DNA from: an uncultured Muribaculaceae bacterium
Lineage (GTDB): Bacteria; Bacillota_I; Bacilli_A; RF39; UBA660
Assembly (NCBI GenBank): GCA_964561805.1
Contig: CAZLQU010000001.1
Span: forward strand, 26,125-66,992
Reading direction: 5' to 3'
DNA: 40,868 nucleotides
Positions 3,541 through 27,637 of this stretch are shown here, in pieces. The number at the start of each line of letters is the position of its first letter. Positions within the stretch are counted from its first letter, which is position 1. The position numbers were made by a program, and so were the translations under genes. The notes under the pieces were generated by a model. The model searched no databases. It worked only from the letters and a program-made list of their open reading frames with translations, and was not told the DNA's origin.

Positions 3541-3617
3541 TTATGCAACTAAACTATATAATTTTTAATGTATTAAATAATAATTTGTGAAAAAAGAAAA
3601 AAATATAGCTTCTTTTG

Positions 3618-3646
3618 TTGCAATAAACTCTATATTTTGTTATACT
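3618..3646 (+). promoter_or_regulatory. Sigma-A type promoter of giant gene 1
   Basis: TTGCAA (3618-3623), 17 nt, TATACT (3641-3646). The same arrangement is conserved upstream of giant gene 2. Confidence 0.55.
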
Positions 3647-3654
3647 TTATATAA

Positions 3655-3678
3655 GAATAGAATTTGATAATTCTATTC
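3655..3678 (+). promoter_or_regulatory. Conserved 5'UTR / operator-like perfect palindrome just upstream of the SD of giant gene 1
   Basis: GAATAGAATT-tgata-AATTCTATTC (10 bp stem, 5 nt loop), 4 nt before the GGTGA SD (3682-3686). A near-identical copy lies at 20144-20167. Confidence 0.55.
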
Positions 3679-3691
3679 AATGGTGACCAAA

Positions 3692-6600
3692 ATGAAGAAA
3701 AAAATTACAATCATTACAATTGTTGTTTTTGTCGTGGGTCTAATCATAGCGGGATCAAGCTATGCGTTTTGGTCATGGACAAGTAACGTCAATAAGAATG
3801 TTGTCTTTAATATAGCTAGTAATTTAAGAAATTATATTGTCTATAATGAAGGTGAATCAGCTTTTACTGGTGAACTTAATGTAAGTAATAGTTACCTTAC
3901 TGGAAGTATTCATTCGACAATTTCAATTTATAAAACAACAAATGTTAATATGCTGGCAACATTACATATGGATGTTAATCAAATTGGTCCTAATATGAAA
4001 AATAGTACGGCTTTAAAATGGGTAGTAACTGCAGGAACGGTATCAAATGTTGGTGCTGAACTTGCTCATGGTAATTTTGTTGGAGCAAATAATGGAGATA
4101 CTTTAACATTAGTACCAGATATTCCAGTTAATATAACGGAAACATTCTATACTATATGGATTTGGCTTGATAGTAGTGAAAATCCATCAGATAATCTATC
4201 AGGAGAAACACTTGACACAAATGTTTGGACTGAAATTAATCAAGCTGAAGGTGCTGAAGATAGATATGAAATAACAAATACTAATGCTAATTATCAACAA
4301 ATTAGTGCAACAGTCGTAGATAGCAAATATAAAGTAACTCATTATGCCATAACAACTACAAATAGTGATCCATCAAATTGGACAGAAATAATTCCAACAA
4401 CTGAACAAAATAATGTCTATACTTTAAATGAATCAGTAAGTGGTACAGGAACATATTATATTTGGTTTAAAGATGAGAATAATAGAGTAAAAAACAAACA
4501 AATTCAAGTATCATCAGTTGATACTACTGCTCCTAGTTGTGTATGGGGACCATTTGCTCCAGGTATAATTAATTATAATAACACCTCAGTAATTACCTTA
4601 ACATGTACAGATAGTGAATCAGGAATATCAGTTCATAATCTAACAACTGCTGATATTATTACATCAAATAGTAGTATTGAAGTTAGTAATATTGTTAAAG
4701 AAAATATTGCTAATGGATATAAATATACAATAACGGTAATTGGCACTAGTAATATTGGAACGGCTGATCTTACATTAGATGATAACAAAGTAAGAAATGG
4801 TGTTAATTTAGGTAATAGTAGTATATCATCAGACGATTTAATGATTGATAAAGCATCTTGTGTTGCACCAACTAATGTTCAAATATCAACTGCTGGAATT
4901 GTTACATGGACAGCTAGTTCAACTGCAAGCAGTTATGAGATTAGTATTGATAATGAAACATTCGCTACCGCTACAAGTGGAATTGATTATAAGAATACGA
5001 TAATTGCCACATCGGGAACAAGAACAGTATATGTCCGTTCAGTATGTGATAGCACTTATTATTATACTCCAAGTGATAATGCAACAAAATCAATAAATGT
5101 ATATAGTGTTTCATTGACTAATGGAACTGGTATAAGTACGGTTACAGGATCAGGCAATTATATTAGTGGTTCTACAGTAAATATTGGAGCCACAGTTGCT
5201 AGTAATTATTCGTGGGGTAATTGGACAGATAATAATAATGGTAATGCCCAAATAAGTACTGTCAGAACATATTCTGGGACAATCAGCAGCAATTGGAATT
5301 ATCGTGCAAATGCAGTTGCAGACCAATATACAGTTGATTTTGATGACAATCGATTCAATACATCAGCAAGTTTGACTGCAGGCGGCTTGACTATATCATA
5401 TAATTCAAATACACATGAGTTAACGATTGATGGTACGCAGACAGCATCAATTCAACTTCAAAATATACTGCAAACATTTACTGAAGGTGATACTTACAAA
5501 GCAACTTTAACTTATATTAGTGGAAGTGTAAGTTCAGGTGATGGCTCTAACTATCTTATATGTAATGATTTGAGAGGCCAAAATGTATCTGATGTTGTCC
5601 TTCAATATTGCTTGAAACCACCATCAGCATCAATCAATACTATTACAAAAACAATCACTGCTGATGCAGCAACAAATGGTAAGCGTTTATTTGCTATGTT
5701 ATGGGTGCAATCAGAAAATCAAATAACATATACAAATTACAAAGTAAAGGTAGATTTTACTAAAGTTGAAACAAAAACGGTTACTTATGGTAGTACATAT
5801 GGTACTTTGCCATCACCAACAAGGACAGGATATACTTTTGATGGTTGGTATACGGCAGAAACTGGAGGTACTAAAGTTCTTGCGACTAGTACATTATCAG
5901 TTAATGCCGATCATACATTATATGCTCATTGGACACCCGAGTCATATACAGTAACATTTGATGATAATAGATTTAATGCACCAGCAAGTATGACAGTTGA
6001 TGATTTAACAGTTTCATATAATTCAAATACGCATGAATTAACAATTAATGGTACGCAGACAGCATCAATTCAACTTCAAAATATACTGCAAACATTTACT
6101 GAAGGTGATACGTATAAAGCAACTTTAACTTATATTAGTGGAAGTGTAAGTTCAGCTGATGGCTCTAACTATCTTATATGTAATGATTTGAGAGGTCAAA
6201 ATGTATCTGATGTTGTCCTTCAATATTGTTTGAGACCACCATCAGCATCAATCAATACTGTTACAAAAACAATCACTGCTGATGCAGCGACAAATGGTAA
6301 GCGTTTATTTGCTATGTTATGGGTGCAATCAGCTAATCAAATAACATATACAAATTACAAAGTAAAGGTAGATTTTACTAAAGTAGAGACTAAAACAGTT
6401 ACATATGGCAGTACATATGGTACTTTACCGGCACCAACAAGAGCAGGATATACTTTTGATGGTTGGTATACGGCAGAAACTGGAGGTACTAAAGTTCTTG
6501 CGACTAGTACATTATCAGTTAATGCCGATCATACATTATATGCTCATTGGACACCCGAGTCATATACAGTAACATTTGATGATAATAGATTTAATGCACC

Positions 6601-9600
6601 AGCAAGTATGACTGAAGGTGGATTAACAATAACCTATGATTCGGGTACACATGAATTAACAATAACTGGTACACAAGCGGCTGCTGTAAATCTTCAGCGA
6701 ATTTTACATACATTTGTAGAGGGGGATACATATAATTCAACCTTGACATATGTAAGTGGTACGGTAACGGCAATAGATAATACTACCCATTATTTATGCA
6801 ATGATGTGGTTAATAATAATGGAACAGTATATCAATATTGCATAACACCACCACTATCATCAAGTGTTACTAGGCAGAGGGTAATAACTGCTGATGCTGC
6901 CAATAATGGTACTCATCTACGTAGTTGGTTATATGCAGCAACTGGCAATAAAGTAACTTATACAAATTATAAAATCAGGGTAGATTTTACTAAAGTTGAG
7001 ACAAAAGCAGTTACATATGGTAGTTCATATGGCACTTTGCCAACGCCGACTAGGACAGGATATACTTTTGATGGTTGGTATACGGCAGAAACTGGTGGAA
7101 GTAAAATAACTAATTCTTCATCTGTTTCAACCGCAGAAAATCATACATTGTATGCTCATTGGACAATAAAAGAACCGGCGCTTATAATAAATCCGAATGG
7201 TGGTAGTTATAACGGTTCAACGAGTAATACTCGTATAACACAGGCATATAATACAACCTATCAAGTTCTTAATAATCCAACTAGGGCAGGCTATGTCTTT
7301 AATGGTTGGACAATATCAGGTGATGGTACGTATAATCCATATGATACATCTATAAGTCCAACATCAACACAAACTATTAATTATAATTCTTCTAGTAGTA
7401 CGTTACCTACAGTATATAATAATTCTGGCGGTGGAACGGTAACTTTATCAATGGTTAGTGATTCAACTGCTAGTGGTGGCTATGCCCTAAGAATGGTTAC
7501 GAATGGTACGGCATCTCCTGGAGCCGGTGGTATGCATACAAGTATTTTACCAACAGATCCAAGTAGAATTAATGTAATCGAAATTCGTGCCAAAATACCT
7601 ACAGGATATAATTTGAAACCAGGAGGAGTTAGTTATTATTATACAGGAATAGGTAGTAGTTATATTGTTAGGCCTACAGGAGGTACTGGTTCATGGAAAA
7701 CATATTATTTAATTATCTATGGTGGTGATACTGGTACATTTTCTTCAGAATTATACTTATATATAACAGGAAGTAATAATACATCAGTTACATGGTATAT
7801 CAATTCGGTAACTGTAAAAAGTTATACTAGAAGTCAGTTTAAATCAGTTTACCAATTTGGTGAGGCTGCTGGCACTTTGACAGCAAATTGGGCACTTAAT
7901 GGTTCAAGAGTAAGATTTAATACAAATGGTGGATCATATAATACAACATATGTTAAAAATTGGACTAATGGTTATAACAGTGTATCAGCTAATTCTTCAG
8001 CTGATAGGCATATTAATTACAGTACTTCATATGCTACATTCCCAGCTGATAATTCTTATAATTGGACCCCTGATGACAGAGTTATATCAAAAACCGGATG
8101 TACTTTTACAGGTTGGTATACTGCGACATCAAATGGGACTAAAGTTTTCAACACAAATGGTACATTGGTAGCCTCGGTAAGTGGATATAGTGATGCTTCT
8201 AAAGCGTGGATAAAGTATGATGCCAATACAAATCTGTATGCCATATGGTCAGCTAATTCATATCAGGTATGCTACAATAAAAATACAACTGATACGGTAT
8301 CAAGTATGCCTTCGGGATGTACATCATATACATATGCCTCTAGTGGAACGGTTAATTTAAACTCATCTGCTCCAACAAGAACAGGCTATACTTTTCAAGG
8401 CTGGTCAACATCATCAACAGCCACGACGGGAGATTATGCAGCTGGAGCTGCTTGGAGTAAGAGTAATGTACCTAATTCTGGGAATACAATTACTTTATAT
8501 GCAATATGGAAAGCAAAGCCAGTATATATTTACTACAATCCAAATGGTGGTACTGTTGGTGGAACATATACAACATATAACGGTTGGATGTCAAGTGATG
8601 GCTCAACATATTATAAATATACAGTAAATAGTGGTGCAAGTGTCGATTTAATGAATTATAATGGTTCTAATTTTGGAATAACTAAAGAAGGTTATGAGCC
8701 ACCGACAGCTAGTATTTGGTGCTTAAAGAATAGTACAACGGCATGTTATGATCAAACAACTAGTTATACATATGACCAATATAAAGCAAATGCCACTGAA
8801 AAAACAAGTAATTATGAATTAAATCTATATGTCAATTGGCAAGGAAAAGCATATACGGTTAAGTTTTATCGTGGTTTAGGAACTAGTGAAGGCGGCGATC
8901 CAACGTATCTTGGAAGTACTAGTTGTACATTTGGAACAACTTGTACTTTGAAAAAATACTCTAGTATGACAGCAGTCTTTCCTAGTTCAAGTGCAGGTTG
9001 GGGCTTTGCCGGCTGGAGTATTAGCCAGACTAGTACAACAAGAACGTATAGTGATCAGCAAAGTATCAATCCTTCATCATATACTGCGACTTTAAATTTA
9101 TATGCTGTTGGTTCAAGAACGGTAACTTACTATCGACCAACGACTGCCAGTCCATCAACTAATGATACGGTAACATATACGCAATATTGGATTCCGTATA
9201 CGAATTCGACGACATATGCAACATCTGTAACGGTACCGGCTGGTAGAAGTATTGGTAATAGCTGGACGTTCCAATGTTATCGTGCTAATGATACTGCATC
9301 TTCAACATGTGGAATTAATGCAAGTTATAATGGTTCAACTTATAATATTCCAGTTGGTAATTTGGTAACATATAGATCAATATATAATAGATCATTAAGT
9401 TTGGTTTACAATAAGAATGGTGGTACCGGTACAGCTCCGTCGACTCAATCTGCAACACAGTACTATAATAGTGGTACTACTAGCGGAGCAAATACAGTCG
9501 GTGCAACTTTCACTTTAGCTGCCAACACTTTGACCAAAACAGGTAACAACTTTAATGGTTGGGCCGAAAGCAGTTCGGCTACTTCAGGAACGGCAGCTGG

Positions 9601-10621
9601 CGGAACAATTACATATAATCCTGGATTAACATCTACCACATTAACTAAGAATGTGTATGCTACATGGACTCCTAAACCTGTATATATTTACTACAATCCA
9701 AATGGTGGTACTGTTGGTGGAACATTTACAACATATAACGATTGGATGTCAAGTGATGGCTCATCGTATTATAAACAAGTAGTAAATAGTGGCGGAAGTA
9801 CAGATTTAGTTAATTATAATGCTTCAGCTTTTGGAATAACTAAAAAAGGTTATGTACCACCGACAGCTAGTATATGGTGTTTAAAGAATAGTACAACGGT
9901 ATGTTATGATCAAACAACTAGTTATACATATGCCCAATATAAAGCAAATGCTACTGAAAAAACTTCTTATTATGATTTGAGTCTATATGTCAATTGGGCA
10001 CCTGTTACATATTCAATTTCTTATAACTTAAATGGTGGCTCGCATGGTACTAATCATCCAACTAGTGCAACTTATGGTGCAAGTCCATTTGCGATATCTG
10101 CGCCATCAAAATCGGGATACACATTTACAGGTTGGACAAGTACGACACTTGGTACAACAGCTAAAGCATGTACAGGAACAGCTACATCAACATGTGCCAA
10201 TTGGGGTGGTGAAAAAACAGCAAGAGGATATTATACAAATTTAAGTGATTCAACTACTGGCGTTACGTTAGTAGCTAATTGGGTATCTAATACGACATAT
10301 ACAGTTAAGGTATTTAAATGCTTAATGTATACGACAACTCCAAAAAGGACAGCAAATTATCAATCATATGATAGTTATAGTGCATGTAATTCAGCTTGTA
10401 CTGGAACATGCTATAGTGAAACAGGCACAGCATATACTTGTGTATGGTATACAAATTCATGTTCAAGTCCATATTCTTTATCAGGAAGTACATGTGTTGC
10501 TTATTTATCACAAGAACAATCATCGCAAACTGGTCAAACATCATGTACGCCAGTTACAAACTATACAACATGTAATAGTAGTCATGTTAATGAAACTAAT
10601 ACAACATGTACTGAAGAATAA
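3692..10621 (+). CDS. Giant (about 2,310 aa) cell-surface protein with a signal-anchor, a family-specific N-terminal module, Ig/FN3-like domains, many Listeria-Bacteroides (InlB B-repeat, Flg_new) repeats and a C-terminal Cys-rich domain
   Basis: ORF is open 3680-10621. I place the start at ATG 3692 (GGTGA SD, 5 nt spacer), because the upstream ATG 3680 is TTG in the paralog. N-terminus is MKKKITIITIVVFVVGLIIAGSSYAFWSW. The motif GYTF(D/Q/T)GW...HTLYA(H/I)W recurs more than 10 times. DTTAPSC...TCTDSESGI looks Ig-like. There is no LPXTG and no C-terminal TM segment. Confidence 0.9.
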   Translation: MKKKITIITIVVFVVGLIIAGSSYAFWSWTSNVNKNVVFNIASNLRNYIVYNEGESAFTGELNVSNSYLTGSIHSTISIYKTTNVNMLATLHMDVNQIGPNMKNSTALKWVVTAGTVSNVGAELAHGNFVGANNGDTLTLVPDIPVNITETFYTIWIWLDSSENPSDNLSGETLDTNVWTEINQAEGAEDRYEITNTNANYQQISATVVDSKYKVTHYAITTTNSDPSNWTEIIPTTEQNNVYTLNESVSGTGTYYIWFKDENNRVKNKQIQVSSVDTTAPSCVWGPFAPGIINYNNTSVITLTCTDSESGISVHNLTTADIITSNSSIEVSNIVKENIANGYKYTITVIGTSNIGTADLTLDDNKVRNGVNLGNSSISSDDLMIDKASCVAPTNVQISTAGIVTWTASSTASSYEISIDNETFATATSGIDYKNTIIATSGTRTVYVRSVCDSTYYYTPSDNATKSINVYSVSLTNGTGISTVTGSGNYISGSTVNIGATVASNYSWGNWTDNNNGNAQISTVRTYSGTISSNWNYRANAVADQYTVDFDDNRFNTSASLTAGGLTISYNSNTHELTIDGTQTASIQLQNILQTFTEGDTYKATLTYISGSVSSGDGSNYLICNDLRGQNVSDVVLQYCLKPPSASINTITKTITADAATNGKRLFAMLWVQSENQITYTNYKVKVDFTKVETKTVTYGSTYGTLPSPTRTGYTFDGWYTAETGGTKVLATSTLSVNADHTLYAHWTPESYTVTFDDNRFNAPASMTVDDLTVSYNSNTHELTINGTQTASIQLQNILQTFTEGDTYKATLTYISGSVSSADGSNYLICNDLRGQNVSDVVLQYCLRPPSASINTVTKTITADAATNGKRLFAMLWVQSANQITYTNYKVKVDFTKVETKTVTYGSTYGTLPAPTRAGYTFDGWYTAETGGTKVLATSTLSVNADHTLYAHWTPESYTVTFDDNRFNAPASMTEGGLTITYDSGTHELTITGTQAAAVNLQRILHTFVEGDTYNSTLTYVSGTVTAIDNTTHYLCNDVVNNNGTVYQYCITPPLSSSVTRQRVITADAANNGTHLRSWLYAATGNKVTYTNYKIRVDFTKVETKAVTYGSSYGTLPTPTRTGYTFDGWYTAETGGSKITNSSSVSTAENHTLYAHWTIKEPALIINPNGGSYNGSTSNTRITQAYNTTYQVLNNPTRAGYVFNGWTISGDGTYNPYDTSISPTSTQTINYNSSSSTLPTVYNNSGGGTVTLSMVSDSTASGGYALRMVTNGTASPGAGGMHTSILPTDPSRINVIEIRAKIPTGYNLKPGGVSYYYTGIGSSYIVRPTGGTGSWKTYYLIIYGGDTGTFSSELYLYITGSNNTSVTWYINSVTVKSYTRSQFKSVYQFGEAAGTLTANWALNGSRVRFNTNGGSYNTTYVKNWTNGYNSVSANSSADRHINYSTSYATFPADNSYNWTPDDRVISKTGCTFTGWYTATSNGTKVFNTNGTLVASVSGYSDASKAWIKYDANTNLYAIWSANSYQVCYNKNTTDTVSSMPSGCTSYTYASSGTVNLNSSAPTRTGYTFQGWSTSSTATTGDYAAGAAWSKSNVPNSGNTITLYAIWKAKPVYIYYNPNGGTVGGTYTTYNGWMSSDGSTYYKYTVNSGASVDLMNYNGSNFGITKEGYEPPTASIWCLKNSTTACYDQTTSYTYDQYKANATEKTSNYELNLYVNWQGKAYTVKFYRGLGTSEGGDPTYLGSTSCTFGTTCTLKKYSSMTAVFPSSSAGWGFAGWSISQTSTTRTYSDQQSINPSSYTATLNLYAVGSRTVTYYRPTTASPSTNDTVTYTQYWIPYTNSTTYATSVTVPAGRSIGNSWTFQCYRANDTASSTCGINASYNGSTYNIPVGNLVTYRSIYNRSLSLVYNKNGGTGTAPSTQSATQYYNSGTTSGANTVGATFTLAANTLTKTGNNFNGWAESSSATSGTAAGGTITYNPGLTSTTLTKNVYATWTPKPVYIYYNPNGGTVGGTFTTYNDWMSSDGSSYYKQVVNSGGSTDLVNYNASAFGITKKGYVPPTASIWCLKNSTTVCYDQTTSYTYAQYKANATEKTSYYDLSLYVNWAPVTYSISYNLNGGSHGTNHPTSATYGASPFAISAPSKSGYTFTGWTSTTLGTTAKACTGTATSTCANWGGEKTARGYYTNLSDSTTGVTLVANWVSNTTYTVKVFKCLMYTTTPKRTANYQSYDSYSACNSACTGTCYSETGTAYTCVWYTNSCSSPYSLSGSTCVAYLSQEQSSQTGQTSCTPVTNYTTCNSSHVNETNTTCTEE
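5327..7174 (+). repeat. In-frame tandem repeat, 3 x 618 bp (206 aa each), inside giant gene 1
   Basis: Units start at 5327, 5945 and 6563 (YTV(D/T)FDDNRFN...HTLYAHWT). Units 1 and 2 are nearly identical at the DNA level and unit 3 is diverged in its first two thirds. A 167-nt stretch at 5828-5994 reads as identical to 6446-6612. Confidence 0.9.
8516..8839 (+). repeat. Copy 1 of a 324-bp dispersed direct repeat inside giant gene 1
   Basis: KPVYIYYNPNGGTVGGTYTTYNGWMSSDGS...CLKNSTTACYDQTTSYTY...LYVNW. Its paralogous block is at 9674-9997. Confidence 0.85.
9674..9997 (+). repeat. Copy 2 of the 324-bp dispersed direct repeat inside giant gene 1
   Basis: KPVYIYYNPNGGTVGGTFTTYNDWMSSDGS...CLKNSTTVCYDQTTSYTY...LYVNW. 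Same length and frame as 8516-8839. Confidence 0.85.
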
Positions 10622-10630
10622 TAGTATTAA

Positions 10631-10658
10631 AAGTCAATACGAAAGTATTGACTTTTTT
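10631..10658 (+). terminator. Rho-independent terminator of giant gene 1 (conserved with the terminator of giant gene 2)
   Basis: AAGTCAATAC-gaaa-GTATTGACTT (GNRA-type loop) followed by TTTT. Nearly the same hairpin occurs at 27611-27637. Confidence 0.8.
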
Positions 10659-10763
10659 AGTGGTATTATGTTATATTTAATGGGACTGCGGTGATTTTGT
10701 TTGATGTGAATACGTTTTTTTTAAGAAAAGAAGCGTTTTTTTGCGTTGTATGGGAGGTATATT

Positions 10764-12770: not shown

Positions 12771-12816
12771 ATTTAAAGTCTATATGAAGTTTAAACATAT
12801 TAAATCATCAATTAAT

Positions 12817-12845
12817 TTGCGCTATTTTAATAATTATGTTATATT
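12817..12845 (+). promoter_or_regulatory. Candidate sigma-A promoter for the dockerin-protein gene
   Basis: TTGCGC, 17 nt, TATATT. A GGTGA SD lies just before ATG 12861. Confidence 0.35.
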
Positions 12846-12860
12846 TATAATGGTGATAAT

Positions 12861-15455: not shown

Positions 15456-15469
15456 TTATATTAAAACTA

Positions 15470-15497
15470 TTTACAAATTGAGAAACAATGCTATAAT
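15470..15497 (+). promoter_or_regulatory. Sigma-A promoter driving the T-box leader / ORF / glyQS unit
   Basis: TTTACA (15470-15475), 16 nt, extended -10 TGcTATAAT (TATAAT 15492-15497). Confidence 0.55.
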
Positions 15498-15503
15498 AAT
15501 TAT

Positions 15504-15628: not shown

Positions 15629-15644
15629 TAATAGGGGGGAAAAA

Positions 15645-16034
15645 ATGAGAAATATTAGCAAAATGATTAAGTGCCGGGCAATATTTTTGCAAAGTCTTGC
15701 AACATTATATAATGGAGATTTCGTTTTTAATGAAGATTTCGATTTACTTTTGGATAGTTTCTTTGATAGTTATATTCATAGTAATTTTGATAAGTTTAAT
15801 TTAATATATAATTTTAGATTGGAAGATGGTAAATTAGCAATTCATGAAGAAGATGAATGGCGTGAAATACTAATCAAATACATAAATTGTTTTAGAATAA
15901 ATGACACTAAAAATATTATTAAATTATATAATGATGTAGGATTTAGTGATACTCAAAAATTAAGCGAATTAGCAGAAATGTTTTATGAATATCTAGCACT
16001 TATTAGTGATGATAAAGTAATGATAAAGAGTTAA
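15645..16034 (+). CDS. Hypothetical acidic 129-aa protein between the T-box leader and glyQS
   Basis: ATG 15645 is preceded by a GGGGGG SD with a 5-6 nt spacer. The ORF-track start 15510 would translate the leader RNA. I recognise no motif. It ends 11 nt before glyQS. Confidence 0.55.
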   Translation: MRNISKMIKCRAIFLQSLATLYNGDFVFNEDFDLLLDSFFDSYIHSNFDKFNLIYNFRLEDGKLAIHEEDEWREILIKYINCFRINDTKNIIKLYNDVGFSDTQKLSELAEMFYEYLALISDDKVMIKS

Positions 16035-16045
16035 GGAGGAAAAAA

Positions 16046-17413: not shown

Positions 17414-17440
17414 TTTTCTCTTTTAATTTGTTTTTTTTTA
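17395..17440 (+). terminator. Possible terminator after glyQS
   Basis: AGAGAGAAUU...AAUUUUCUCU (one G-U pair) overlaps the stop codon and is followed by T-rich sequence including T9. The AU-rich stem is weak. Confidence 0.35.
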
Positions 17441-17480
17441 AATACTATGATATAATACTCGGCCGATTGGGGATGGTAGT

Positions 17481-18320: not shown

Positions 18321-18331
18321 AAAAGTGTCAA

Positions 18332-18365
18332 GAGAGCGTTTAATTTAGAAAACGCTTTCTTTTTG
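18332..18365 (+). terminator. Rho-independent terminator after the kinase-like gene
   Basis: GAGAGCGTTT-aatttag-AAAACGCTTTC followed by TTTTT. Confidence 0.7.
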
Positions 18366-18366
18366 C

Positions 18367-18395
18367 TTGTTTTAATTAGGCTTTTATACTATAAT
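18367..18395 (+). promoter_or_regulatory. Candidate sigma-A promoter for the 533-aa membrane protein gene
   Basis: TTGTTT, 17 nt, TATAAT. An AGAGGAG SD lies before ATG 18418. Confidence 0.45.
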
Positions 18396-18417
18396 TGGGT
18401 TAGAGGAGAATGTTAAA

Positions 18418-20019: not shown

Positions 20020-20037
20020 AAATAATCACCTTTTTTT
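20005..20037 (+). terminator. Rho-independent terminator
   Basis: AAAAAAGGTGATT-agaaat-AATCACCTTTTTTT, overlapping the stop codon. Confidence 0.75.
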
Positions 20038-20106
20038 ATTATGTGTTCGCCATATAATATTTAATATATATTAAATATTAATTTATTAAAAATACAATAT
20101 ATTATG

Positions 20107-20135
20107 TTGCAAATAATACTATATTTTGGTATACT
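20107..20135 (+). promoter_or_regulatory. Sigma-A type promoter of giant gene 2 (paralog of 3618-3646)
   Basis: TTGCAA (20107-20112), 17 nt, extended -10 TGgTATACT (TATACT 20130-20135). Confidence 0.55.
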
Positions 20136-20143
20136 TTATATAA

Positions 20144-20167
20144 GAATAGAATTTGATAGTTCTATTC
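20144..20167 (+). promoter_or_regulatory. Second copy of the conserved 5'UTR / operator-like palindrome
   Basis: GAATAGAATT-tgat-AGTTCTATTC. The single stem difference from copy 1 (A to G) still allows a U-G pair. A GGTGA SD follows at 20171-20175. Confidence 0.55.
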
Positions 20168-20180
20168 ATTGGTGACCAAA

Positions 20181-23100
20181 ATGGAAAAGAAAAAAATTAC
20201 AATCCTTACAATTGTTGTTTTTGTCGTGGGTCTAATCATAGCAGGATCAAGCTATGCCTTTTGGTCGTGGACTAGTAATATAAATAAAAACTTAGTTTTT
20301 AATACTGCTAGTAATTTAAGAAATTATATTGTCTATAATGAAGGAGAATCAGCTTTTACTGGTGAACTTCAAGTAAGTAATAGCTATCAAACCGGAAGTG
20401 TACATGCAACTGTTTCAATTTATAAAACTACAAATGTTAATATGCTTGCTACATTACATATGGATGTTAATCAAATTGGCCCTAATATGAAAAATAGTAC
20501 GGCTTTAAAATGGGTAGTAACGGAAGGTACAGTATCAAATGTAGGAAGTGAACTTGCTCATGGTAATTTTGTTGGAGCAAATAATGGGGATTTATTAACA
20601 TTAGTACCTGATATAAATATTACGACTACAGAAGCATTCTATACAGTATGGATTTGGATAGATTCATCAGAAAATCCATCAGATAACATATCAGGTGAAA
20701 CCTTAGATACCGATATTTGGATGGAAATAAATCAAGTAGAGGGATCTGAAGATAGATATGAAATAACAAATACTAATGCTCATTATCAACAAGTTAGTGC
20801 AACAGTTGTAGATAATAAATACAAAGTAACTCGTTATGCCATAACGACAACAAATAGTGACCCATCTACTTGGACAACAATTACACCAACAACTGAACAA
20901 AACAATGTCTATACTTTAAATGAATCAGTAAGTGGTACAGGAACATATTATATTTGGTTTATGGATAGTGAAGGTCGTGTAACATGTGAACAAGTTGTTG
21001 TAACTGAAGTAGATACCACTAAACCAAGTTGTAGTTGGGGAGCGTTTACACCTAATACAGTTCAAAATAATGCGACATCTTCAGTAACATTAACATGTAC
21101 CGATAGTGAATCAGGAATAGGTGTATATAACTTACAAGCAAGCGATTTTACACCATCAAATAATAAGATAACGGTAACAAATGTAACTAGAGAAAGTGTA
21201 ACTAATGGATATAAATATACAATTACAGTAACTGGTACTACAAATGATGGTACATCACATCTTACAGTTGATGCTAACAAGATTAGAAATGGTGCTGGGT
21301 TAGGTAACTTAAGTACTTCATCTGGTGATATAAGTGTCGTAAATGTTATAAATATTACTTTGGATAATGCTAGTGCTACGACTAATGGTACAAGTACAAT
21401 TTATTTAAGTTATAATGATGGAATATATTTAGATAGTGGATTAATTAATCAAATGACGGATAGTACTAATCCAATTACAATACCTGTAAGAACATATTAT
21501 AGTTTTTTAGGTTATTATGATAATACGACTCAAATGATAGATAGTGATGGACATATTACAAGCAACTTTACTAATACACTTTATAGTAGTGCTAAGACCT
21601 TAAATGCACATTGGCAGGATACAACATCACCAATAGCTTCACTTTCAGTTAGTATTACTAATAATACGATAAATGCAACAGCGACTGTTTCAGATAATGG
21701 TGATGGTTTTGATGGAAACTATCATTGGTTAGTTTCAACAAGTAATACTTGTGATCAAAATGTTGATATAAATGATTTTACAACGACAACAACTAATACG
21801 TATTCACATGTAATGCAAGATAATAATTTATATTATGTATGTTTAATGGTTAAAGATAATGCTGATAATGAAACATATTCTGTTTCTCAAGGATTAAGTA
21901 ATATAGTAGTATCATTTAATTCAAAAACTGCAGACAATATATCATTTTCTAATAAATATGTAGCTTATAATCAAGTTTATGGTGAATTTCCAACTACAAC
22001 TAAAACAGGATATACATTAAAAGGTTGGAGTTTAGCCGAAGATGCTTCCTATATTCCTAATACATATCAGCAAGTTGAGTATCTTCAGTCTACAGGTACG
22101 CAATATATTGATACGGGATATATACCAAATGAAAACTCTAGGTTATGGTTAGATTATCAACCAACTGAAGCACAGTCAAAGATTTATGCTGGAGCTAGAA
22201 ATGAGTCTTCTTCACCAAAGGTATATTTTACAATTAATTCAGGATCTAATAATACTAAAATGTATGCTTCTTGGGGAACAACCGTAAATTACAATATAGG
22301 GCCAATGACAACCGATAGAGTGAGAACGGAGATTGGATCTGAAGGTATTTACTATAATGATGAATATGTAACAATGCCTGGAGAAACAGTATGGAGCAAT
22401 ATATCATATTCAGTATATTTATTTGCAGTACAAGAATCTAGTAATACAGCATCATTAAATGCAAGTGTAAAAATATATGAAGCCAAAATATATGAGGGAA
22501 ATACACTTATTCATCATATGATTCCATGTTATAGGAAAAGCGATAATGTTAGAGGAATGTATGATGCAATCAGTGGTGAATTTTATACTAATAGTGGAAC
22601 TGGTACATTTGGTATTGGTAGTGATGTAAACAATTATGTTACGGAATCAACAACTGTTAGCAAAAACGAAAATCACACATTATATGCTGTATGGAAAGAT
22701 GAAGAGGCACCAACTGGTACATTAACACTTTCAGATGACAATTGGATAATTACGGCTACGGTTAGTGCAAGTGATACAGGCTCTGGTGTAAAACCTAGAT
22801 ATGGTTTTAAAATGATTGATACAAATAATTGTAATTCATCAGTTACAGGATTTGTTGAGACAAGTGTTAATAGTTATACTTTTTCTGATTCGTTAAAATA
22901 CTATGTATGTGTTAGAATTCAAGATAACGAAGGCAATTATAATTATTTATCTCAAAGAATTCCAGCAAGTTATTACTTATATACTGGTGATGTACAATCA
23001 TTTACAGCACCTTCTGATGGATATTATTTTGTTGAAACATATGGTGCTCAGGGTGGAGAAGAGACAAATGGTGGATATTCTTCTGGATATATTGAACTGA

Positions 23101-26100
23101 ACGCTAATGATGTATTATACGTTTATGTTGGTGGAAGTGGAGCTGAACGTGATAGTACAGGTTTAGGTGGCTGGAATGGCGGAGGCAATACATTAGATAA
23201 TGGTAATGGTAAAAAAGGTCCTGCCGGTGGTGGTGCTACCGATATTAGACTTACTAATGGTGCTTGGGATAATGCAACATCACTTAATTCACGAATAATG
23301 GTTGCTGGTGGAGGTAGTGGTTGGTATGGCGTTGGTGGTACTTTAGTTGGTAAGCCTGGCCAAGAAACAAGTTATCAATATTATCAACACGTTGGAAAAG
23401 GAGGGGCTCAAACTGCCGGTGGAGGTGAACCAATTATTTATAGTACAGCTACTTCAAATGGTACGGCTGGTGGTTTTGGAACTGGAGGTACTGGCGGTGG
23501 AAGTAGAAGCGGCACAACAACAGGCGGCGGAGCAGGTGGTGGCGGTGGCTACTACGGTGGCTCTGGAGCATCTGGAATAGCTGATGGTGTATTAGGTGGT
23601 GGTGGCGGTTCGTCATTCATCTCAGGATATGCTGGAGCTAATGCAATAACGTCAGCATCAGATCGAACACATACGAATAATACTAAACATTATAGTAACA
23701 AATACTTTATTGATAATAAAATGACGGCTGGAGTAAATTCTGGTAATGGTAGAGCAAGAATAAAGCCAGTAGATAGTATTCCTCAAAGAGTAAATACTGA
23801 TCTTAATAATGTAAGATATGTTAAAGATTGCATAAGTGGAAATTCTCAAGACGATTATAATACTTGGGTTGAAATTGAAGTAATTGAGAATGGTGTCAAC
23901 ATAGCTGATGGTATAACTGCAACGGGTATTACGCCATACTATGGATATGATATATCATATTTAACAAATGGTGATATTACTCCTTTAGAATATGTACAAA
24001 GTTCAGTTATTGGTTCACCATCATGTGTGATACTTGACCTAGGTGAAACATATAACGTAGATGAAATTGCGGTATGGCATATTTGGAACGATGGAAGAAC
24101 ATATAATAATAATGTTACATATGTATCAAATGATGGCATATTATATGTACCAGTTATAAATAATCAAACACCAGAAACGTCAAATGGTAAAAGAGTAACA
24201 GCGTGGGATAATCCACTTGAAGATAATACTCCAAGAGCTGAATTTAATTATACTGGTGATTATCAAACATTTACTGTTCCAGAAAGTGGTTACTATAAAA
24301 TAGAAACTTGGGGAGCAGAAGGTGGCTTTGCCAATTATAGTACGAAATATAATGGTGGAGCTGGTGGTTATTCATCTGGTTATATAAATTTAACAGCTAA
24401 TGATACATTATACATATATGTAGGAGGCATGGGCTCATCAGTAAGTGGTACATCAAGCGCAACTGTTACTGATAATGGCTTTGGTTATAATGGCGGTGGG
24501 CCTGCTGGATTTTATGCATCAAATTCTAATGGTGGTGGCGGCGGCGGAGCTACTGACGTTAGAACAGTTAGTGGAGCATGGAATGATACTACATCACTTA
24601 ATTCAAGAATAATGGTTGCAGGTGGTGGTGGAGCTGCAAGATCACATTCTAGTACTCCAAGATACTCTGGCACAGGTGGTACTGGAGGTGGATTAATAGC
24701 TGGTAATGGTGTAGCTGGTAATACTTATTGTTATGCTCTTGGTATTGGAGGTAAACAAAACACAGCAGGAACTTCTACTACTTGTAGTAGTGATGGTCAT
24801 GCATATTCGAATAATGCTTTGTTTGGTTATGGATGGTATGATTATAGTACCACGGTTGCTTATCAAAGTGGCAATACTACTGCCGAAGGTGGAGGTGGTG
24901 GTTACTATGGTGGTGGTATTGGATATCACGCACCATCTGGTGGAGGTTCATCATTCATCTCTGGATATGCTGGCGTAAATGCTATAACATCCGCATCAGA
25001 TAGAACACATACAAATAATACAAAACATTATAGTAATAAATACTTTATAAATGGAAGTATGTCTAGTGGTGTAAATACTGGAAATGGTAAAGCAACGGTG
25101 ACATATGCTGGTGCCACAATGCCAAGAACTAATACAGATCTTAATAATGTAAGATATATTAAAGATTGTATAAATGGAAGTAGTTCAAATATAGGTAATC
25201 ATTGGGTTGAATTACAAGCAATACAAAATGGAATAAATTTAGCTAAAAATAAAGCTGTAACTGGCACTCATTCAGAAAAAACCGATCGACCATATAGTGT
25301 TATTACTGATGGATTGCTGCTAACTACTTCTACAATGTATGCAGCGCCATCATATGATGGTGGTATGCAATGTATCACAGTTGATTTAGGTGCAACATAT
25401 AATCTGGATGAAATAGCAATATGGCATTTTTATGATGATGGTAGAACATATTATGATAATACAACATCTGTATCTAGTGATAATATTTTCTTCATACCAG
25501 TTATTAATAGACAAGAAGCAGAAACAGCTAATGGTAAGAGAGTTAGTGCTTGGGATCAACCTCTTGCTGATAATGAGCCTAGAGCAATATATTATTATAT
25601 TGGTAATTATCAAACGTTTACGGCTCCACAAAGTGGATATTATAAGATTGAAGCATGGGGTGCTCAAGGTGGTGGTGGTCCTAAAGGTGGTTACGTATCA
25701 GGTTATATTAATTTAACCGCTAATGACACACTATATATTTATGCTGGTGGTAAGGGATTATCCTCAAACTCTAGTTCCGGAACTGGTGGCTATAATGGTG
25801 GTGGGTCTACTGAAGCAACTAGTGGGAAACGTGGGCCTACTGGCGGTGGAGCTACGGATATTAGATTAGTTAGTGGTACTTGGAACAATGCGACATCACT
25901 AAACTCAAGGATTATGGTTGCGGCTGGTGGCGGCGGATATTATAATACGGCAAGTTATGGTATCGGCGGTGGTTTGCTAGGAGTAGATGGAGCTGATTCT
26001 GCATACACATATTATGTAAGTGTCGGTAAAGCCGGTATGCAACGATCTGGTGGAGCAACACCTACTAAAGATAGTGGAGCTAGTACAAATGGAACAGCTG

Positions 26101-27611
26101 GTGGATTTGGAACAGGTGGAAAGGGTGGTGCTAGTGGTACTGGTGTATCTACTGGCGGCGGCTCTGGTGGTGGCGGTGGCTACTACGGTGGATCTGGAGC
26201 TTCTGGGCTATCGAATGGTTCATTTGGTGCTGGTGGTGGTTCCTCATTTATCTCAGGATATGCTGGAGTTAATGCGATAACATCGGCATCAGATAGGACA
26301 CATACAAATAATACAAAACATTATAGTAATAAATACTTTATTGATAGTACAATGTCATCTGGTGTTAGTTCAGATAATGGTCAAGTTATTATTAAATATG
26401 CGGGTCCATCGCATTCAAGTGTAAATAGCGCTCTTAATGGTATTAGATATATTAAGGATTGCATCAATGGTAATACATTAAATACATACAATCAATGGAT
26501 AGAGATTCAAGCAATTCAAGATGGTGTTAATCTTGCCAAAAACAAAACTATAACTGGTACAGCGAATGCTGAATCTGGTTATGAATATACATATATTGTT
26601 GATGGTATGATTGATAATTCTAAATATGGTAGAACCCCAAGCAATAGTGGGCTTCAATGTGTAACAATTGATTTGGAAAATACATATGATTTGGATGAAG
26701 TAGCCGTATGGCATGTATGGACTGATGGTAGATCATTTAATGATAATGTAACATATGTATCAAGTAATAATACGGATTGGGCAATTATTATTGCTAATGA
26801 GGATGTTGAAACCCATAATGGTAAGAGATTCAATAGATGGCAGGAATATAATCAATACATTGAATGCGAGGCAGGAACATATCTTGCTGCTGGAGGAACG
26901 ACATGTATTACATGTCCAGCAGGATCAGCTTGCCCGGGTGGTATATATGAATATAGTATGACTAGTGCTAATGGTATTAATGCTTGTGCTGCCGGTAAAT
27001 TCTCAACTGGTGGAGCTGAAAGTTGTACTAACTGTGTTGCGGGATCATATAGTGGAACTGGAGCTTCAGGATGTATAGCTTGTGCTGCTGGTAAAACAAA
27101 TACAGCAGGATCAGGTAGTTGTTCATCTAATTGTTCAAATAGTGCTGGTGTAAGTACATGGTACACACCAACATGGAATAGTAACAATACAATGACTAAT
27201 TCATGTAAGGTAAATACTTGTAGTAGTTCTTACCATATAAATGGCAATGCTTGTGCTAAGAATTCTTATACCAAGACACAAGTTGATTGTGTGTATACAT
27301 CATATAAAGCAACTTCTAGTAGTGCTAGTTTCACATATGGTGGAAATCAAAGTGGGTGTACTTCAGCTTGCTCTGCATATAGTGGCACGTGTTCTGCTTT
27401 AAATGGTAGTCCTTCATCAGCTACCTTGTGGCGCTGCACGTACACCAAATATACTTGTCCAAACTATGGTGCTACGTTAGCAAGTAATCATAGATGTTAT
27501 TACACTACGACACAGACAACTACATCGACAACAACAGATTGTACACCAAAGACAGAGTTTAGTACATGTAATTATAGTAATCGTGGTAAATCTAATGTTA
27601 CTTGTAGTTAA
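20181..27611 (+). CDS. Giant (about 2,476 aa) cell-surface protein with the same N-terminal module as giant 1, Ig-like domains, three [glycine-rich ALK-GRD-like + discoidin/F5-F8 type C-like] units, ephrin-receptor-like CxxC repeats and the family C-terminal Cys-rich domain
   Basis: ORF is open 20169-27611, with the start placed at ATG 20181 (GGTGA SD). N-terminus is MEKKKITILTIVVFVVGLIIAGSSYAFWSW. Three recurrences of YQ(S/T)FT(A/V)P.SGYY..E.(Y/W)GA(Q/E)GG, GGGATD(I/V)R, SRIMVA(G/A)GGG, GGGGYYGG and GGGSSFISGYAG.NAITSASDRTHTNNTKHYSNKYFI. Each is followed by NVRY(V/I)KDC...DLG.TY.(V/L)DE(I/V)A(V/I)WH...DGR(T/S). Confidence 0.9.
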   Translation: MEKKKITILTIVVFVVGLIIAGSSYAFWSWTSNINKNLVFNTASNLRNYIVYNEGESAFTGELQVSNSYQTGSVHATVSIYKTTNVNMLATLHMDVNQIGPNMKNSTALKWVVTEGTVSNVGSELAHGNFVGANNGDLLTLVPDINITTTEAFYTVWIWIDSSENPSDNISGETLDTDIWMEINQVEGSEDRYEITNTNAHYQQVSATVVDNKYKVTRYAITTTNSDPSTWTTITPTTEQNNVYTLNESVSGTGTYYIWFMDSEGRVTCEQVVVTEVDTTKPSCSWGAFTPNTVQNNATSSVTLTCTDSESGIGVYNLQASDFTPSNNKITVTNVTRESVTNGYKYTITVTGTTNDGTSHLTVDANKIRNGAGLGNLSTSSGDISVVNVINITLDNASATTNGTSTIYLSYNDGIYLDSGLINQMTDSTNPITIPVRTYYSFLGYYDNTTQMIDSDGHITSNFTNTLYSSAKTLNAHWQDTTSPIASLSVSITNNTINATATVSDNGDGFDGNYHWLVSTSNTCDQNVDINDFTTTTTNTYSHVMQDNNLYYVCLMVKDNADNETYSVSQGLSNIVVSFNSKTADNISFSNKYVAYNQVYGEFPTTTKTGYTLKGWSLAEDASYIPNTYQQVEYLQSTGTQYIDTGYIPNENSRLWLDYQPTEAQSKIYAGARNESSSPKVYFTINSGSNNTKMYASWGTTVNYNIGPMTTDRVRTEIGSEGIYYNDEYVTMPGETVWSNISYSVYLFAVQESSNTASLNASVKIYEAKIYEGNTLIHHMIPCYRKSDNVRGMYDAISGEFYTNSGTGTFGIGSDVNNYVTESTTVSKNENHTLYAVWKDEEAPTGTLTLSDDNWIITATVSASDTGSGVKPRYGFKMIDTNNCNSSVTGFVETSVNSYTFSDSLKYYVCVRIQDNEGNYNYLSQRIPASYYLYTGDVQSFTAPSDGYYFVETYGAQGGEETNGGYSSGYIELNANDVLYVYVGGSGAERDSTGLGGWNGGGNTLDNGNGKKGPAGGGATDIRLTNGAWDNATSLNSRIMVAGGGSGWYGVGGTLVGKPGQETSYQYYQHVGKGGAQTAGGGEPIIYSTATSNGTAGGFGTGGTGGGSRSGTTTGGGAGGGGGYYGGSGASGIADGVLGGGGGSSFISGYAGANAITSASDRTHTNNTKHYSNKYFIDNKMTAGVNSGNGRARIKPVDSIPQRVNTDLNNVRYVKDCISGNSQDDYNTWVEIEVIENGVNIADGITATGITPYYGYDISYLTNGDITPLEYVQSSVIGSPSCVILDLGETYNVDEIAVWHIWNDGRTYNNNVTYVSNDGILYVPVINNQTPETSNGKRVTAWDNPLEDNTPRAEFNYTGDYQTFTVPESGYYKIETWGAEGGFANYSTKYNGGAGGYSSGYINLTANDTLYIYVGGMGSSVSGTSSATVTDNGFGYNGGGPAGFYASNSNGGGGGGATDVRTVSGAWNDTTSLNSRIMVAGGGGAARSHSSTPRYSGTGGTGGGLIAGNGVAGNTYCYALGIGGKQNTAGTSTTCSSDGHAYSNNALFGYGWYDYSTTVAYQSGNTTAEGGGGGYYGGGIGYHAPSGGGSSFISGYAGVNAITSASDRTHTNNTKHYSNKYFINGSMSSGVNTGNGKATVTYAGATMPRTNTDLNNVRYIKDCINGSSSNIGNHWVELQAIQNGINLAKNKAVTGTHSEKTDRPYSVITDGLLLTTSTMYAAPSYDGGMQCITVDLGATYNLDEIAIWHFYDDGRTYYDNTTSVSSDNIFFIPVINRQEAETANGKRVSAWDQPLADNEPRAIYYYIGNYQTFTAPQSGYYKIEAWGAQGGGGPKGGYVSGYINLTANDTLYIYAGGKGLSSNSSSGTGGYNGGGSTEATSGKRGPTGGGATDIRLVSGTWNNATSLNSRIMVAAGGGGYYNTASYGIGGGLLGVDGADSAYTYYVSVGKAGMQRSGGATPTKDSGASTNGTAGGFGTGGKGGASGTGVSTGGGSGGGGGYYGGSGASGLSNGSFGAGGGSSFISGYAGVNAITSASDRTHTNNTKHYSNKYFIDSTMSSGVSSDNGQVIIKYAGPSHSSVNSALNGIRYIKDCINGNTLNTYNQWIEIQAIQDGVNLAKNKTITGTANAESGYEYTYIVDGMIDNSKYGRTPSNSGLQCVTIDLENTYDLDEVAVWHVWTDGRSFNDNVTYVSSNNTDWAIIIANEDVETHNGKRFNRWQEYNQYIECEAGTYLAAGGTTCITCPAGSACPGGIYEYSMTSANGINACAAGKFSTGGAESCTNCVAGSYSGTGASGCIACAAGKTNTAGSGSCSSNCSNSAGVSTWYTPTWNSNNTMTNSCKVNTCSSSYHINGNACAKNSYTKTQVDCVYTSYKATSSSASFTYGGNQSGCTSACSAYSGTCSALNGSPSSATLWRCTYTKYTCPNYGATLASNHRCYYTTTQTTTSTTTDCTPKTEFSTCNYSNRGKSNVTCS
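22971..26840 (+). repeat. Three diverged tandem coding units (about 1.25-1.35 kb each) of glycine-rich domain plus discoidin-like domain
   Basis: Units start near 22971, 24240 and 25588. Protein motifs are conserved while many codons differ synonymously, so this is an old duplication under constraint. Confidence 0.8.
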
Positions 27612-27637
27612 AGTCAATACGAAAGTATTGGCTTTTC
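27611..27637 (+). terminator. Rho-independent terminator of giant gene 2 (paralog of 10631-10658)
   Basis: AAGTCAATAC-gaaa-GTATTGGCTT (one U-G pair) followed by TTC. Starts at the last base of the stop codon. Confidence 0.7.

Follow-up and report, generated by a model that had tools for sequence, protein, structure and literature searches.

Two very long open reading frames (ORFs) on the + strand of a 40,868-nt piece of contig CAZLQU010000001.1 from an uncultured rumen bacterium (GenBank assembly GCA_964561805.1; the whole piece is called the window below) raise the question of how two genes can agree almost to the letter in the signals that surround them, and closely in the first 386 residues that they encode, while their bodies are unrelated. 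A first-pass annotation of these genes, termed gene A and gene B here, had proposed that they belong to a recombining, variable surface-protein family with swappable payloads, and comparison with a core-swapped allele, a block-replaced allele and a strain that carries neither gene (L022, P0332 and L045, described below) supports that proposal with qualifications. In our reading, to which we assign a probability of roughly 70%, genes A and B each form a self-contained expression unit, whose product is a giant, adhesin-like surface protein held by its N-terminus; the proteins belong to a large unnamed family, and homologous recombination reshuffles their payloads. The units share one anatomy and belong to a family of wide modular diversity; whole units are gained and lost between strains, and alleles exist that are mosaics with sharp breakpoints.

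The N-terminal module (N-module) is the strongest point of resemblance between the two genes. Translation is taken to begin at the ATG codons at 3692 and 20181 because each follows a GGTGA at a distance of 5 nt, whereas the longer ORF starts at 3680 and 20169 have no ribosome-binding site. Read from these starts, the modules align gaplessly with 295 of 384 residues identical (77%, E 8e-176), which bears out the earlier claim of a shared signal-anchor and N-terminal part of roughly 390 aa. The corresponding DNA (3556-4841 and 20052-21333) is 80.5% identical, the agreement running at ~88-95% as far as ~4470 (aa ~260) and at ~60-75% from there to 4841. Both proteins have, from residue 1, the hydrophobic segment and the ~360 aa of three beta domains by which the N-module family is defined. 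In gene A the hydrophobic helix spans aa 2-21; domain 1 (aa ~35-185) is a jelly-roll, domain 2 (aa ~192-273) a beta domain and domain 3 (aa ~282-385) immunoglobulin (Ig)-like, and W156-I-W-x-D160 in domain 1 and P281, C283, C305 and D307 in domain 3 are invariant. AlphaFold2, supplied with a 35-sequence alignment, models the module as a helix, a short low-confidence linker and three beta domains with a mean predicted local distance difference test score (pLDDT) of 83.7, and models domain 1 alone as a jelly-roll with a pLDDT of 81.5. When the complete 386-aa model was compared with the PDB by Foldseek, the matches were all generic tandem-Ig structures with TM-scores below 0.26. No Pfam or NCBIfam model reached threshold on the module, whole or in pieces, a sequence-profile search of the PDB returned nothing relevant, and public sources hold no name for either protein; the module is, as had been suspected, not a named family.

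The one hydrophobic segment of each protein lies at its N-terminus, and neither protein has an LPXTG motif, a lipobox, a C-terminal hydrophobic segment or a cysteine in its first 40 residues. Any retention on the cell must therefore go via the N-terminus. The N-module would export the protein and probably hold it on the membrane as a membrane-proximal stalk, since it contains the only hydrophobic segment of a protein that lacks an LPXTG motif and a lipobox. A sortase-anchored LPXTG protein was considered and rejected: no LPXTG-like motif lies near the C-terminal end of either protein, and the two finish in ...NTTCTEE and ...SNVTCS without a hydrophobic stretch.

The agreement between the two genes extends upstream of the coding sequence. 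The promoter layout TTGCAA-17 nt-TATACT is present before both, as the annotation had it, and between the -10 box and the ATG the leaders differ at 2 of 51 nt. The leaders share a palindrome of 27 nt (3653-3679 and 20142-20168) with a single mismatch, found nowhere else in the window and expected zero times in shuffled sequence, followed by the same GGTGA Shine-Dalgarno (SD) sequence, so that the previously reported palindrome and SD of the 5' untranslated region (5'UTR) are both real. The hairpin that the palindrome forms begins in gene A within a few nucleotides of the transcript start, predicted at ~3653, and the sole A/G difference between the two hairpins preserves pairing as U-G. An Rfam scan of the whole window gave no match at gathering score, the 5'UTR element included. 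Downstream, the near-identical terminator hairpins that had been pointed out agree at 23 of 24 nt (3' arm GTATTG(A/G)CTT), where no such match is expected by chance. Leader (2/51) and terminator hairpin (1/24) are far better kept than adjacent synonymous sites, ~30-50% of which differ; the constraint therefore acts on the sequence and not on structure alone. As we picture it, each unit would open with a sigma-70-type, extended -10 promoter, from which an mRNA with a 5'-terminal hairpin is transcribed, continue with the SD, the N-module and a payload, in which interchangeable modules (binding modules or repeats) are strung together at length, and close with an intrinsic terminator.

The same terminator hairpin stands behind family genes in L022, L048 and L049, and in L048 the C-terminus that precedes it is related to neither that of A nor that of B; terminators of other kinds are found in more distant family members. 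It also occurs behind an unrelated, non-family ORF of 902 aa in a metagenome-assembled genome (MAG) labelled 'Clostridia' (L050:3165-3188). In both units of the window, the 3' arm of the hairpin supplies a -35 box at 17-18 nt from the ancestral -10 of the gene downstream, so that the insertion left that gene with a promoter-like site. Homology to the window starts at the -35 box of the family gene both in RUG705 (L003) and in L048, a different species, each with a genomic context of its own. The copy in L048 (580-5595) is split by an in-frame stop into ORFs of 582 and 1071 aa and has the promoter, UTR hairpin and terminator hairpin of the window genes; it is either a pseudogene or a sequencing error.

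Most of the more distant family members carry a hairpin at the same 5'UTR position with differing stem sequences. Hairpins held in one position with different stems fit a role at the RNA level, for instance as a 5'-terminal stabiliser, by analogy with the 5' stem-loops and the RNases J and Y of Firmicutes; an RNase J is encoded in the window (36233-37903). The 5' hairpin might in this way protect the 7-kb mRNAs from decay that depends on the 5' end. A stabilising role leaves the letter-for-letter conservation of the leader hairpin within the clade unexplained. Across the family, the hairpin just upstream of the SD has at least three unrelated stem sequences, GAATAGAATT/AATTCTATTC, GTCCTTAAGTA/TACTT(A/T)AGGAC and TCAAGTA/TACTTGA, seen in the window genes, at L022:10845-10887 and upstream of family genes in L007, L008, L011, L006 and L010. 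The L022 allele has type 1 cleanly exchanged for type 2 at the same position, and its type 2 resembles that of paralogs in a Hadza human-gut MAG.

Conspecific contigs were recovered by exact-protein look-ups and one metagenome scan; L023-L025, L028-L033 and L043 have the same alleles as the window at 99.9-100% identity. L045 is colinear with the window over 12 kb at 98-99% identity and lacks gene A, gene B and an 864-aa gene that lies between them. In place of gene A, L045 joins window position 3539 to 10665 via 62 nt of other sequence, and in place of gene B it joins 20039 to 27644 via ~25 nt. The 62 nt correspond to the empty site in two sister species, L036 and L039, where the CmpB-like and helicase genes are adjacent, and in sister species L039, L040 and L041 a 533-aa gene and a prepilin-like gene, which flank gene B in the window, are likewise adjacent. 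Because the empty sites of L045 match those of the sister species, emptiness is the ancestral state. Each unit replaced part of a spacer and left no convincing target duplication; the only repeat at the unit borders is a 6-nt ATTATG at site A, which is unpersuasive in AT-rich DNA.

L022 has a 2386-aa gene at the gene-A site, between flanks that are ~96% identical to those of the window. Compared with gene A it is 98-100% identical up to ~4470, has 5.5 kb replaced, and is 99-100% identical again from 10021 through the stop codon into the helicase gene. The replaced tract (~4480-10020) includes domain 3 of the N-module (~4480-4849); at 4490-4750 its identity is 80-92% with gene B and a lower 53-77% with gene A, and beyond that the order of modules differs. 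The 5' breakpoint (~4470-4490) falls in the sequence that encodes GTGTYYIWF, in which A matches B at 97%, and the 3' breakpoint (~10020) at the start of a Flg_new unit. A second mosaic, P0332, is an allele of gene B, 99-100% identical to it save at aa ~1400-1990 (~600 aa) and in a sub-block of ~50 aa in the Cys-rich tail. The large block is 47-76% identical in four windows across aa ~1400-1790, rising to 87-90% by aa 1990; it is colinear with the second of the three repeat units of gene B and is not a copy of the first or the third. The core swap in L022 and the block replacement in P0332 supply the chimeric cores between conserved ends that a recombining family had been expected to show across strains, and L045 adds the absence of both genes. 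Exact look-ups of the proteins neighbouring gene B found only the window's own strain or nothing for the gene-B locus of the L022 strain. Downstream of the gene-A locus, identity between the helicase genes of the window and L022 falls from 96-100% to 75-90% after ~11120, and the flank is therefore itself mosaic.

These comparisons also delimit the sequences in which exchange could begin and end. The idea that the conserved ends serve as homology arms would hold for the 5' region and, among alleles of the same locus, for a 3' arm of 600 nt; it fails for the 3' coding DNA of A against B, which is too diverged for an arm. Homologous recombination would act in the conserved 5' region, at the borders of repeated modules and in the locus-specific 3' arm, and would in this way yield new payload combinations and strain-specific surface repertoires.

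Between the N-module and the tail, the bodies of A and B are unrelated overall, as had been claimed; the stronger statement that they have nothing in common needs amending, as Flg_new-like units, one or two in number and weak (18.4 bits, under the cut-off), occur in gene B too. The core of gene A was correctly read as InlB-B-repeat modules: PF09479 (Flg_new) matches over 6 stretches (E 6e-62, 206 bits against a cut-off of 27), TIGR02543 scores 140.6 bits against 20.95, and at least six repeats lie above threshold. This core also has three copies of a ~206-aa unit and large internal duplications at the DNA level. Gene B, described earlier as glycine-rich with discoidin units, bears out the first half of that description. 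Each of its three ~440-aa units is an ALK/LTK-type glycine-rich domain (GRD) followed by an unnamed beta-rich domain, PF12810 (ALK_LTK_GRD) matching in 3 stretches (E 1e-106, 356.7 bits against 24.5) and not at all in gene A; internal DNA repeats span 22964-26772. The discoidin, or F5/F8 type C, label was dropped, the best match being F5_F8_type_C_2 at 13.9 bits against 27.8 (E 0.083). The payloads would on this evidence be adhesive or ligand-binding.

The C-terminal ends are a weaker bond than the N-terminal ones. Only the last ~105 aa of gene B (27288-27608) are homologous to the tail of gene A (31% over 86 aa by BLASTP, E 0.005), with the cysteines in register over the alignment and no detectable similarity at the DNA level. 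A two-sequence hidden Markov model (HMM) of the tail matched low-complexity Thr/Ser/Gly sequence everywhere and was replaced by a shuffle test: the Smith-Waterman score of 125 compares with a mean of 64.5 (standard deviation 9.4) for composition-preserving shuffles, that is, 6.4 standard deviations, and was reached by 0 of 2000 of them. The shared Cys-rich domain is weak and genuine, and at both ends the similarity exceeds compositional background. Tails homologous to that of gene A recur in L005, P0072 and L049. Among 103 long family members, 20 end in some Cys-rich tail, 17 in the GRD motif GGSGI(V/I)IIRNxR and 66 in something else, so that of the two conserved ends proposed around the payload the N-terminal one is family-wide and the Cys-rich one is not. 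A Cys-rich C-terminus is one option of many, and the constant of the family is its N-terminus.

How far the family extends was gauged with a profile of the N-module searched against clusters at 50% identity: it matched 2244 cluster representatives at E<=1e-3, a number that falls to 1012 at E<=1e-10 and to 226 at E<=1e-30, the lower tiers including downstream Ig-like matches because the profile overruns the module. Matches begin nearly always at residue 1, in proteins of 150-4162 aa. In uncultured Bacilli of gut and rumen, the proteins of at least 226 clusters thus begin with the N-module and go on to varied payloads and C-termini. Among GTDB species representatives, 19 related loci were found, 16 of which were analysed as full N-module matches; three loci lie in one MAG and four in another, and the proteins measure 850-2957 aa. 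Within these other genomes the N-modules of paralogs are 75-94% identical, as against 40-55% between genomes. Other family members contain modules of A and B elsewhere in their sequence: the one that follows the N-module of gene A (aa 385-580) is found at aa 2094-2291 in L004, and the Cys-rich region of gene B (aa 2227-2416) at aa 394-578 in P0109.

Several further observations concern the family at large. Proteins of ~620 aa (P0035, P0037, P0064 and ~40 similar ones) have only the signal and domain 1 in common with the giants, at ~50% identity, and continue with an FGE-sulfatase-like domain that is near threshold (22.3 bits against 23.3); domain 1 therefore serves as a leader for proteins that are not giant. 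An operon-like row at L001:10001-14577 encodes an N-module protein of 659 aa (P0012), three small familyless ORFs (154, 167 and 242 aa), a stand-alone protein of domains 1+2 (P0018, 244 aa), which is 94% identical to P0012 in the shared part, and then a giant gene with DUF285. Small ORFs with matches to CdiA_C, a toxin C-terminal domain, lie at variable spots near family loci (L001:1275-2386 and L039:8569-8931). Many homologs of the N-module are truncated on contigs of 1-3 kb, contigs L026 and L027 stop in the gene-A leader (window ~3663), and L045 ends ~800 nt past its empty gene-B site. Contigs that break at family genes indicate that the family is probably under-represented in MAGs.

What speaks against payload exchange by recombination is best weighed together with the view that A and B are static paralogs of an old duplication, their ends kept by purifying selection, with no ongoing exchange and with mosaics that are assembly artefacts. 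Between A and B, dS is 0.47 and dN/dS 0.18 over aa 2-262, and dS is 0.86 and dN/dS 0.42 over aa 263-385. The N-module is under purifying selection, and a dS of 0.47-0.86 means that the copies in this genome have not been recently homogenised by conversion; purifying selection alone explains their similarity, and the similarity of paralogs within other genomes can also come from lineage-specific duplication and not gene conversion. The surface and adhesin part of our reading is suggested by the domain types and by visual reading of a signal/anchor. Among the window proteins scanned, none next to either unit is a recombinase or belongs to a mobile element. The window alleles are also steady, gene A at 99.6-99.9% across several samples and gene B at 99.9-100% across several contigs, and each mosaic allele comes from a single short-read metagenome contig, that of L022 being on one contig only. 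Paralogs that share long identical stretches are where assemblers make chimeras. For L022, however, two mis-joins returning to the same locus would be needed, each at a point of 98-100% identity between the flanks and gene A; such a double chimera is unlikely, and even a chimera would presuppose that a gene with identical arms around another core was present alongside. P0332 repeats the mosaic pattern at another locus in another assembly, the empty alleles of L045 are colinear over 12 kb, and module order varies widely across family members. We accordingly consider static paralogs improbable.

Two other proposals concern how the 5' region and the N-terminus work. On the one, the N-terminus is TasA/camelysin-like, with a SipW-type signal cleaved after G-[ST]-[YF]-A and a jelly-roll domain 1 that uses donor-strand exchange to polymerise or to dock on a fibre, so that the protein is displayed on a fibre and not anchored in the membrane. 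The sequence after the hydrophobic stretch (AGSSYAFWSW in the window, GGTFAYFSW and GGTLAYWRW in relatives) is one that we take to resemble the signal ends of TasA and CalY. TIGR04088 scores 16.5, 13.3 and 13.2 bits in three relatives, below its cut-off of 19, but gives no match on the window proteins; hhalign pairs the family consensus kkk..gGTyAyw with KKK..GGGTWAAF of TasA, but at a probability of 2% and over the signal peptide alone. In Foldseek, domain 1 has its highest query TM-score with a TasA fibre (8aur_A, TMq 0.50, probability 1.0, E 4.6e-3), with two archaeal filament subunits, 7ueg (Pyrobaculum bundling pilus) and 7pnb (Sulfolobus 0406 filament), among the other matches; all E-values nevertheless exceed 1e-3, and CBM32-type jelly-rolls rank higher by E-value. 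Stand-alone domains 1+2 proteins such as P0018 would suit a fibre, yet Pfam gave no Peptidase_M73 match, and no SipW-like peptidase is present in the scanned proteins of the 41-kb window or in the L001 operon. A TasA-like N-terminus seems to us unlikely and is a lead, not a classification; it bears on the working of the N-module and is compatible with the rest of our reading. On the other proposal, the genes are switched on and off by phase variation of the mycoplasma Vlp/Vsp/Vpma type, with the 5' region as the switch (a homopolymer tract or an invertible promoter). The organisms fall in the same broad Bacilli/Mollicutes-like group, and a conserved 5'UTR and N-terminus before unrelated bodies is the layout of vpma and vsp genes (PMC2268961). 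Against this, both promoters are complete with no homopolymer tract in their 17-nt spacers, a hairpin loop of 4 nt leaves no invertible segment, no lipobox is present, no recombinase gene was found nearby among the scanned window proteins, and the genes stand 9.5 kb apart, unclustered. Phase switching of this kind is very improbable.

A bolder extension of the reading based on recombining units, and to our minds a long shot, would make the whole promoter-to-terminator unit a portable display cassette, either as a TasA-like fibre scaffold or with the hairpins as recognition sites. In one version, domain 1 could be a TasA-like, SipW-processed donor-strand module, and giants and short domain-1-only members could co-assemble into one surface fibre or sheath whose payloads are exchanged by recombination. 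In the other, a regulator, or machinery that mobilises the cassette, could recognise the leader and terminator hairpins by their sequence, and the terminator could deliberately bring the -35 box that re-promotes the gene downstream of the landing site.

The setting of the units is that of a bacterial chromosome and not of a phage or plasmid (GC ~29%). Housekeeping genes, among which A and B are scattered, encode an acyl-CoA ligase-like protein, FolD, a CmpB-like protein, a UvrD-like helicase, glycyl-tRNA synthetase (GlyRS), Ung, a HemW-like protein, MscS, phosphoribosyl pyrophosphate (PRPP) synthetase, RNase J and a PASTA/deacetylase protein. Pfam and NCBIfam were run on the window proteins apart from several ORFs at 30.6-35.5 kb and 39.3-40.0 kb, and among the proteins scanned, which exclude a few small ORFs, there is no phage, integrase, transposase or recombinase gene. 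With housekeeping flanks on either side as well, a prophage or mobile-element origin of the units was dropped. Identical or near-identical contigs come from ruminant gut metagenomes, and the MAGs of relatives carry the labels Bacilli, Tenericutes or Erysipelotrichaceae.

Some neighbours deserve mention in their own right. The UvrD-like helicase gene downstream of gene A (10746-12770, +), conserved in sister species, matches PADLOC GajB models (best E 2e-22). The 864-aa gene (12861-15455, +) occupies an islet at 12803-15488 and encodes a secreted protein of no Pfam or PADLOC family, the last 58 aa of which give a full-length, sub-threshold Dockerin_1 match (E 0.009, 16.6 bits against 22.9); PADLOC had no match for the 864-aa, 174-aa or 533-aa proteins. 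This gene is missing in the conspecific L045 and is replaced in L022 by a DUF1016/YhcG gene, which makes it, lying between the two giants, a third strain-variable islet. Immediately after gene B, a 150-aa protein with a prepilin-type N-terminal methylation motif is encoded at 27675-28127 (+); a functional link with gene B was considered and dropped, as the prepilin-like gene stands in the same place in genomes that lack gene B. The coordinates of the features are collected in Table 1.

Table 1. Features of the two giant-gene units, in window positions.
Feature	Position	Strand	Description
Gene A unit	3540..10664	+	Insertion relative to the ancestral CmpB-helicase spacer
Gene A promoter-like site	3618..3646	+	TTGCAA, 17 nt, TATACT, TG extension
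Gene A 5'UTR hairpin	3655..3678	+	10-bp stem, 4-nt loop, -10.2 kcal/mol, z -2.7
Gene A Shine-Dalgarno	3682..3686	+	GGTGA, 5 nt before ATG 3692; identical in gene B, L003, L022 and L048
Gene A coding sequence	3692..10621	+	2309 aa; exact protein in public collections, nameless there
Gene A N-module	3692..4849	+	aa 1-386
Gene A variable core	4850..10020	+	Flg_new / InlB-B-type repeats, unnamed modules
3' arm of gene-A locus	10021..10621	+	Last 200 aa; 99-100% between window and L022, sharp identity drop upstream
Gene A Cys-rich tail	10319..10618	+	aa 2210-2309, 10 Cys
Gene A terminator hairpin	10631..10654	+	AAGTCAATAC-GAAA-GTATTGACTT, then T-run
Promoter-like site for helicase gene	10648..10677	+	-35 TTGACT in 3' arm of terminator hairpin; -10 ancestral
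Gene B unit	20040..27643	+	Insertion relative to the ancestral spacer between 533-aa gene and prepilin-like gene
Gene B promoter-like site	20107..20135	+	TTGCAA, 17 nt, TATACT, TG extension; layout identical to gene A
Gene B 5'UTR hairpin	20144..20167	+	10-bp stem, -11.1 kcal/mol, z -2.9
Gene B Shine-Dalgarno	20171..20175	+	GGTGA, read in the sequence
Gene B coding sequence	20181..27611	+	2476 aa
Gene B N-module	20181..21341	+	aa 1-387
Gene B variable core	21342..26864	+	Ig-like and Flg_new-like modules, then three ~440-aa units
Gene B Cys-rich C-terminal region	26865..27608	+	aa 2229-2476
Gene B terminator hairpin	27611..27634	+	AAGTCAATAC-GAAA-GTATTGGCTT
Promoter-like site for prepilin-like gene	27628..27656	+	-35 TTGGCT in hairpin 3' arm; -10 TATAAT ancestral

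The gut and rumen Bacilli of this group are uncultured, and one N-terminal module marks hundreds of their giant, strain-variable surface proteins, the genes of which break short-read assemblies and so are probably under-counted. The N-module is a candidate for a new Pfam or NCBIfam model and, as a marker, could help to type strains and to study adhesion, be it to feed particles, host mucus or phage. The population data provide a worked example, within one species, of how strains come to gain, lose and re-core whole surface-protein units. If the TasA-like or the cassette reading were true the interest would be wider, and the fibre version of the cassette would amount to a modular bacterial display scaffold.

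Among known systems, the closest in layout are the Vpma proteins of M. agalactiae and the Vsp proteins of M. bovis, in which a conserved 5'UTR and N-terminal export signal precede unrelated coding sequence full of repeats (PMC2268961). The window genes too have a conserved 5'UTR and N-terminal signal before unrelated, repeat-rich bodies, and both systems belong to Bacilli/Mollicutes-related organisms of ruminants. They differ in that the constant N-terminus here comprises 386 aa of predicted folded domains, as against a lipoprotein signal of ~25 aa, and in that the window proteins have no lipobox and are ~10 times larger. The genes are dispersed among housekeeping genes instead of clustered beside a recombinase, and the variation lies between strains (gain, loss and core swap), whereas that of Vpma and Vsp arises by site-specific inversion within a clone.

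The payloads have relatives of their own. Internalins are a paralogous surface-protein family with a common N-terminal part and variable C-terminal parts, and gene A shares the Flg_new repeats (PF09479 / TIGR02543) of Listeria internalins and other InlB-B-repeat proteins. It differs from them in having no leucine-rich repeat (LRR) or inter-repeat region, an unrelated N-module, and no LPXTG, GW or other known anchor. A Listeria class 1 internalin was rejected as an identity for gene A, NF033188 (internalin_H) scoring 81.3 bits against 1050 with the B-repeat part alone aligned, and Pfam finding no LRR. In animals, the glycine-rich domain is the ligand-binding part of a receptor kinase; in gene B, and in the many family members that end in the GRD motif, it would instead be a payload, repeated in gene B, on a predicted bacterial surface protein.

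For the N-terminus, the nearest systems are TasA/camelysin and the archaeal bundling pilins. TasA fibres assemble by donor-strand exchange (PMC9674648), and the archaeal bundling pili are TasA-like, the Pyrobaculum pilus 7ueg having been compared to TasA (PMC9245690). The likeness lies in the end of the signal peptide and in a weakly similar jelly-roll fold; the differences are that no sequence or profile match to the domain was found, that the proteins here carry at least 2000 further residues and that no SipW gene was found in the window. As for mosaicism itself, conserved export and anchoring ends around recombining, strain-specific middles, in mosaics with sharp breakpoints, are familiar from the M and M-like proteins, the Alp family and PspA/PspC. 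These proteins of Gram-positive cocci are sortase- or choline-anchored at the C-terminus and 10-fold smaller, whereas the constant part of the present family is N-terminal. No description of this family was found in the literature: mosaic, strain-specific surface proteins with conserved ends are well known, and it is the family, its N-module and its promoter-to-terminator unit that are new.

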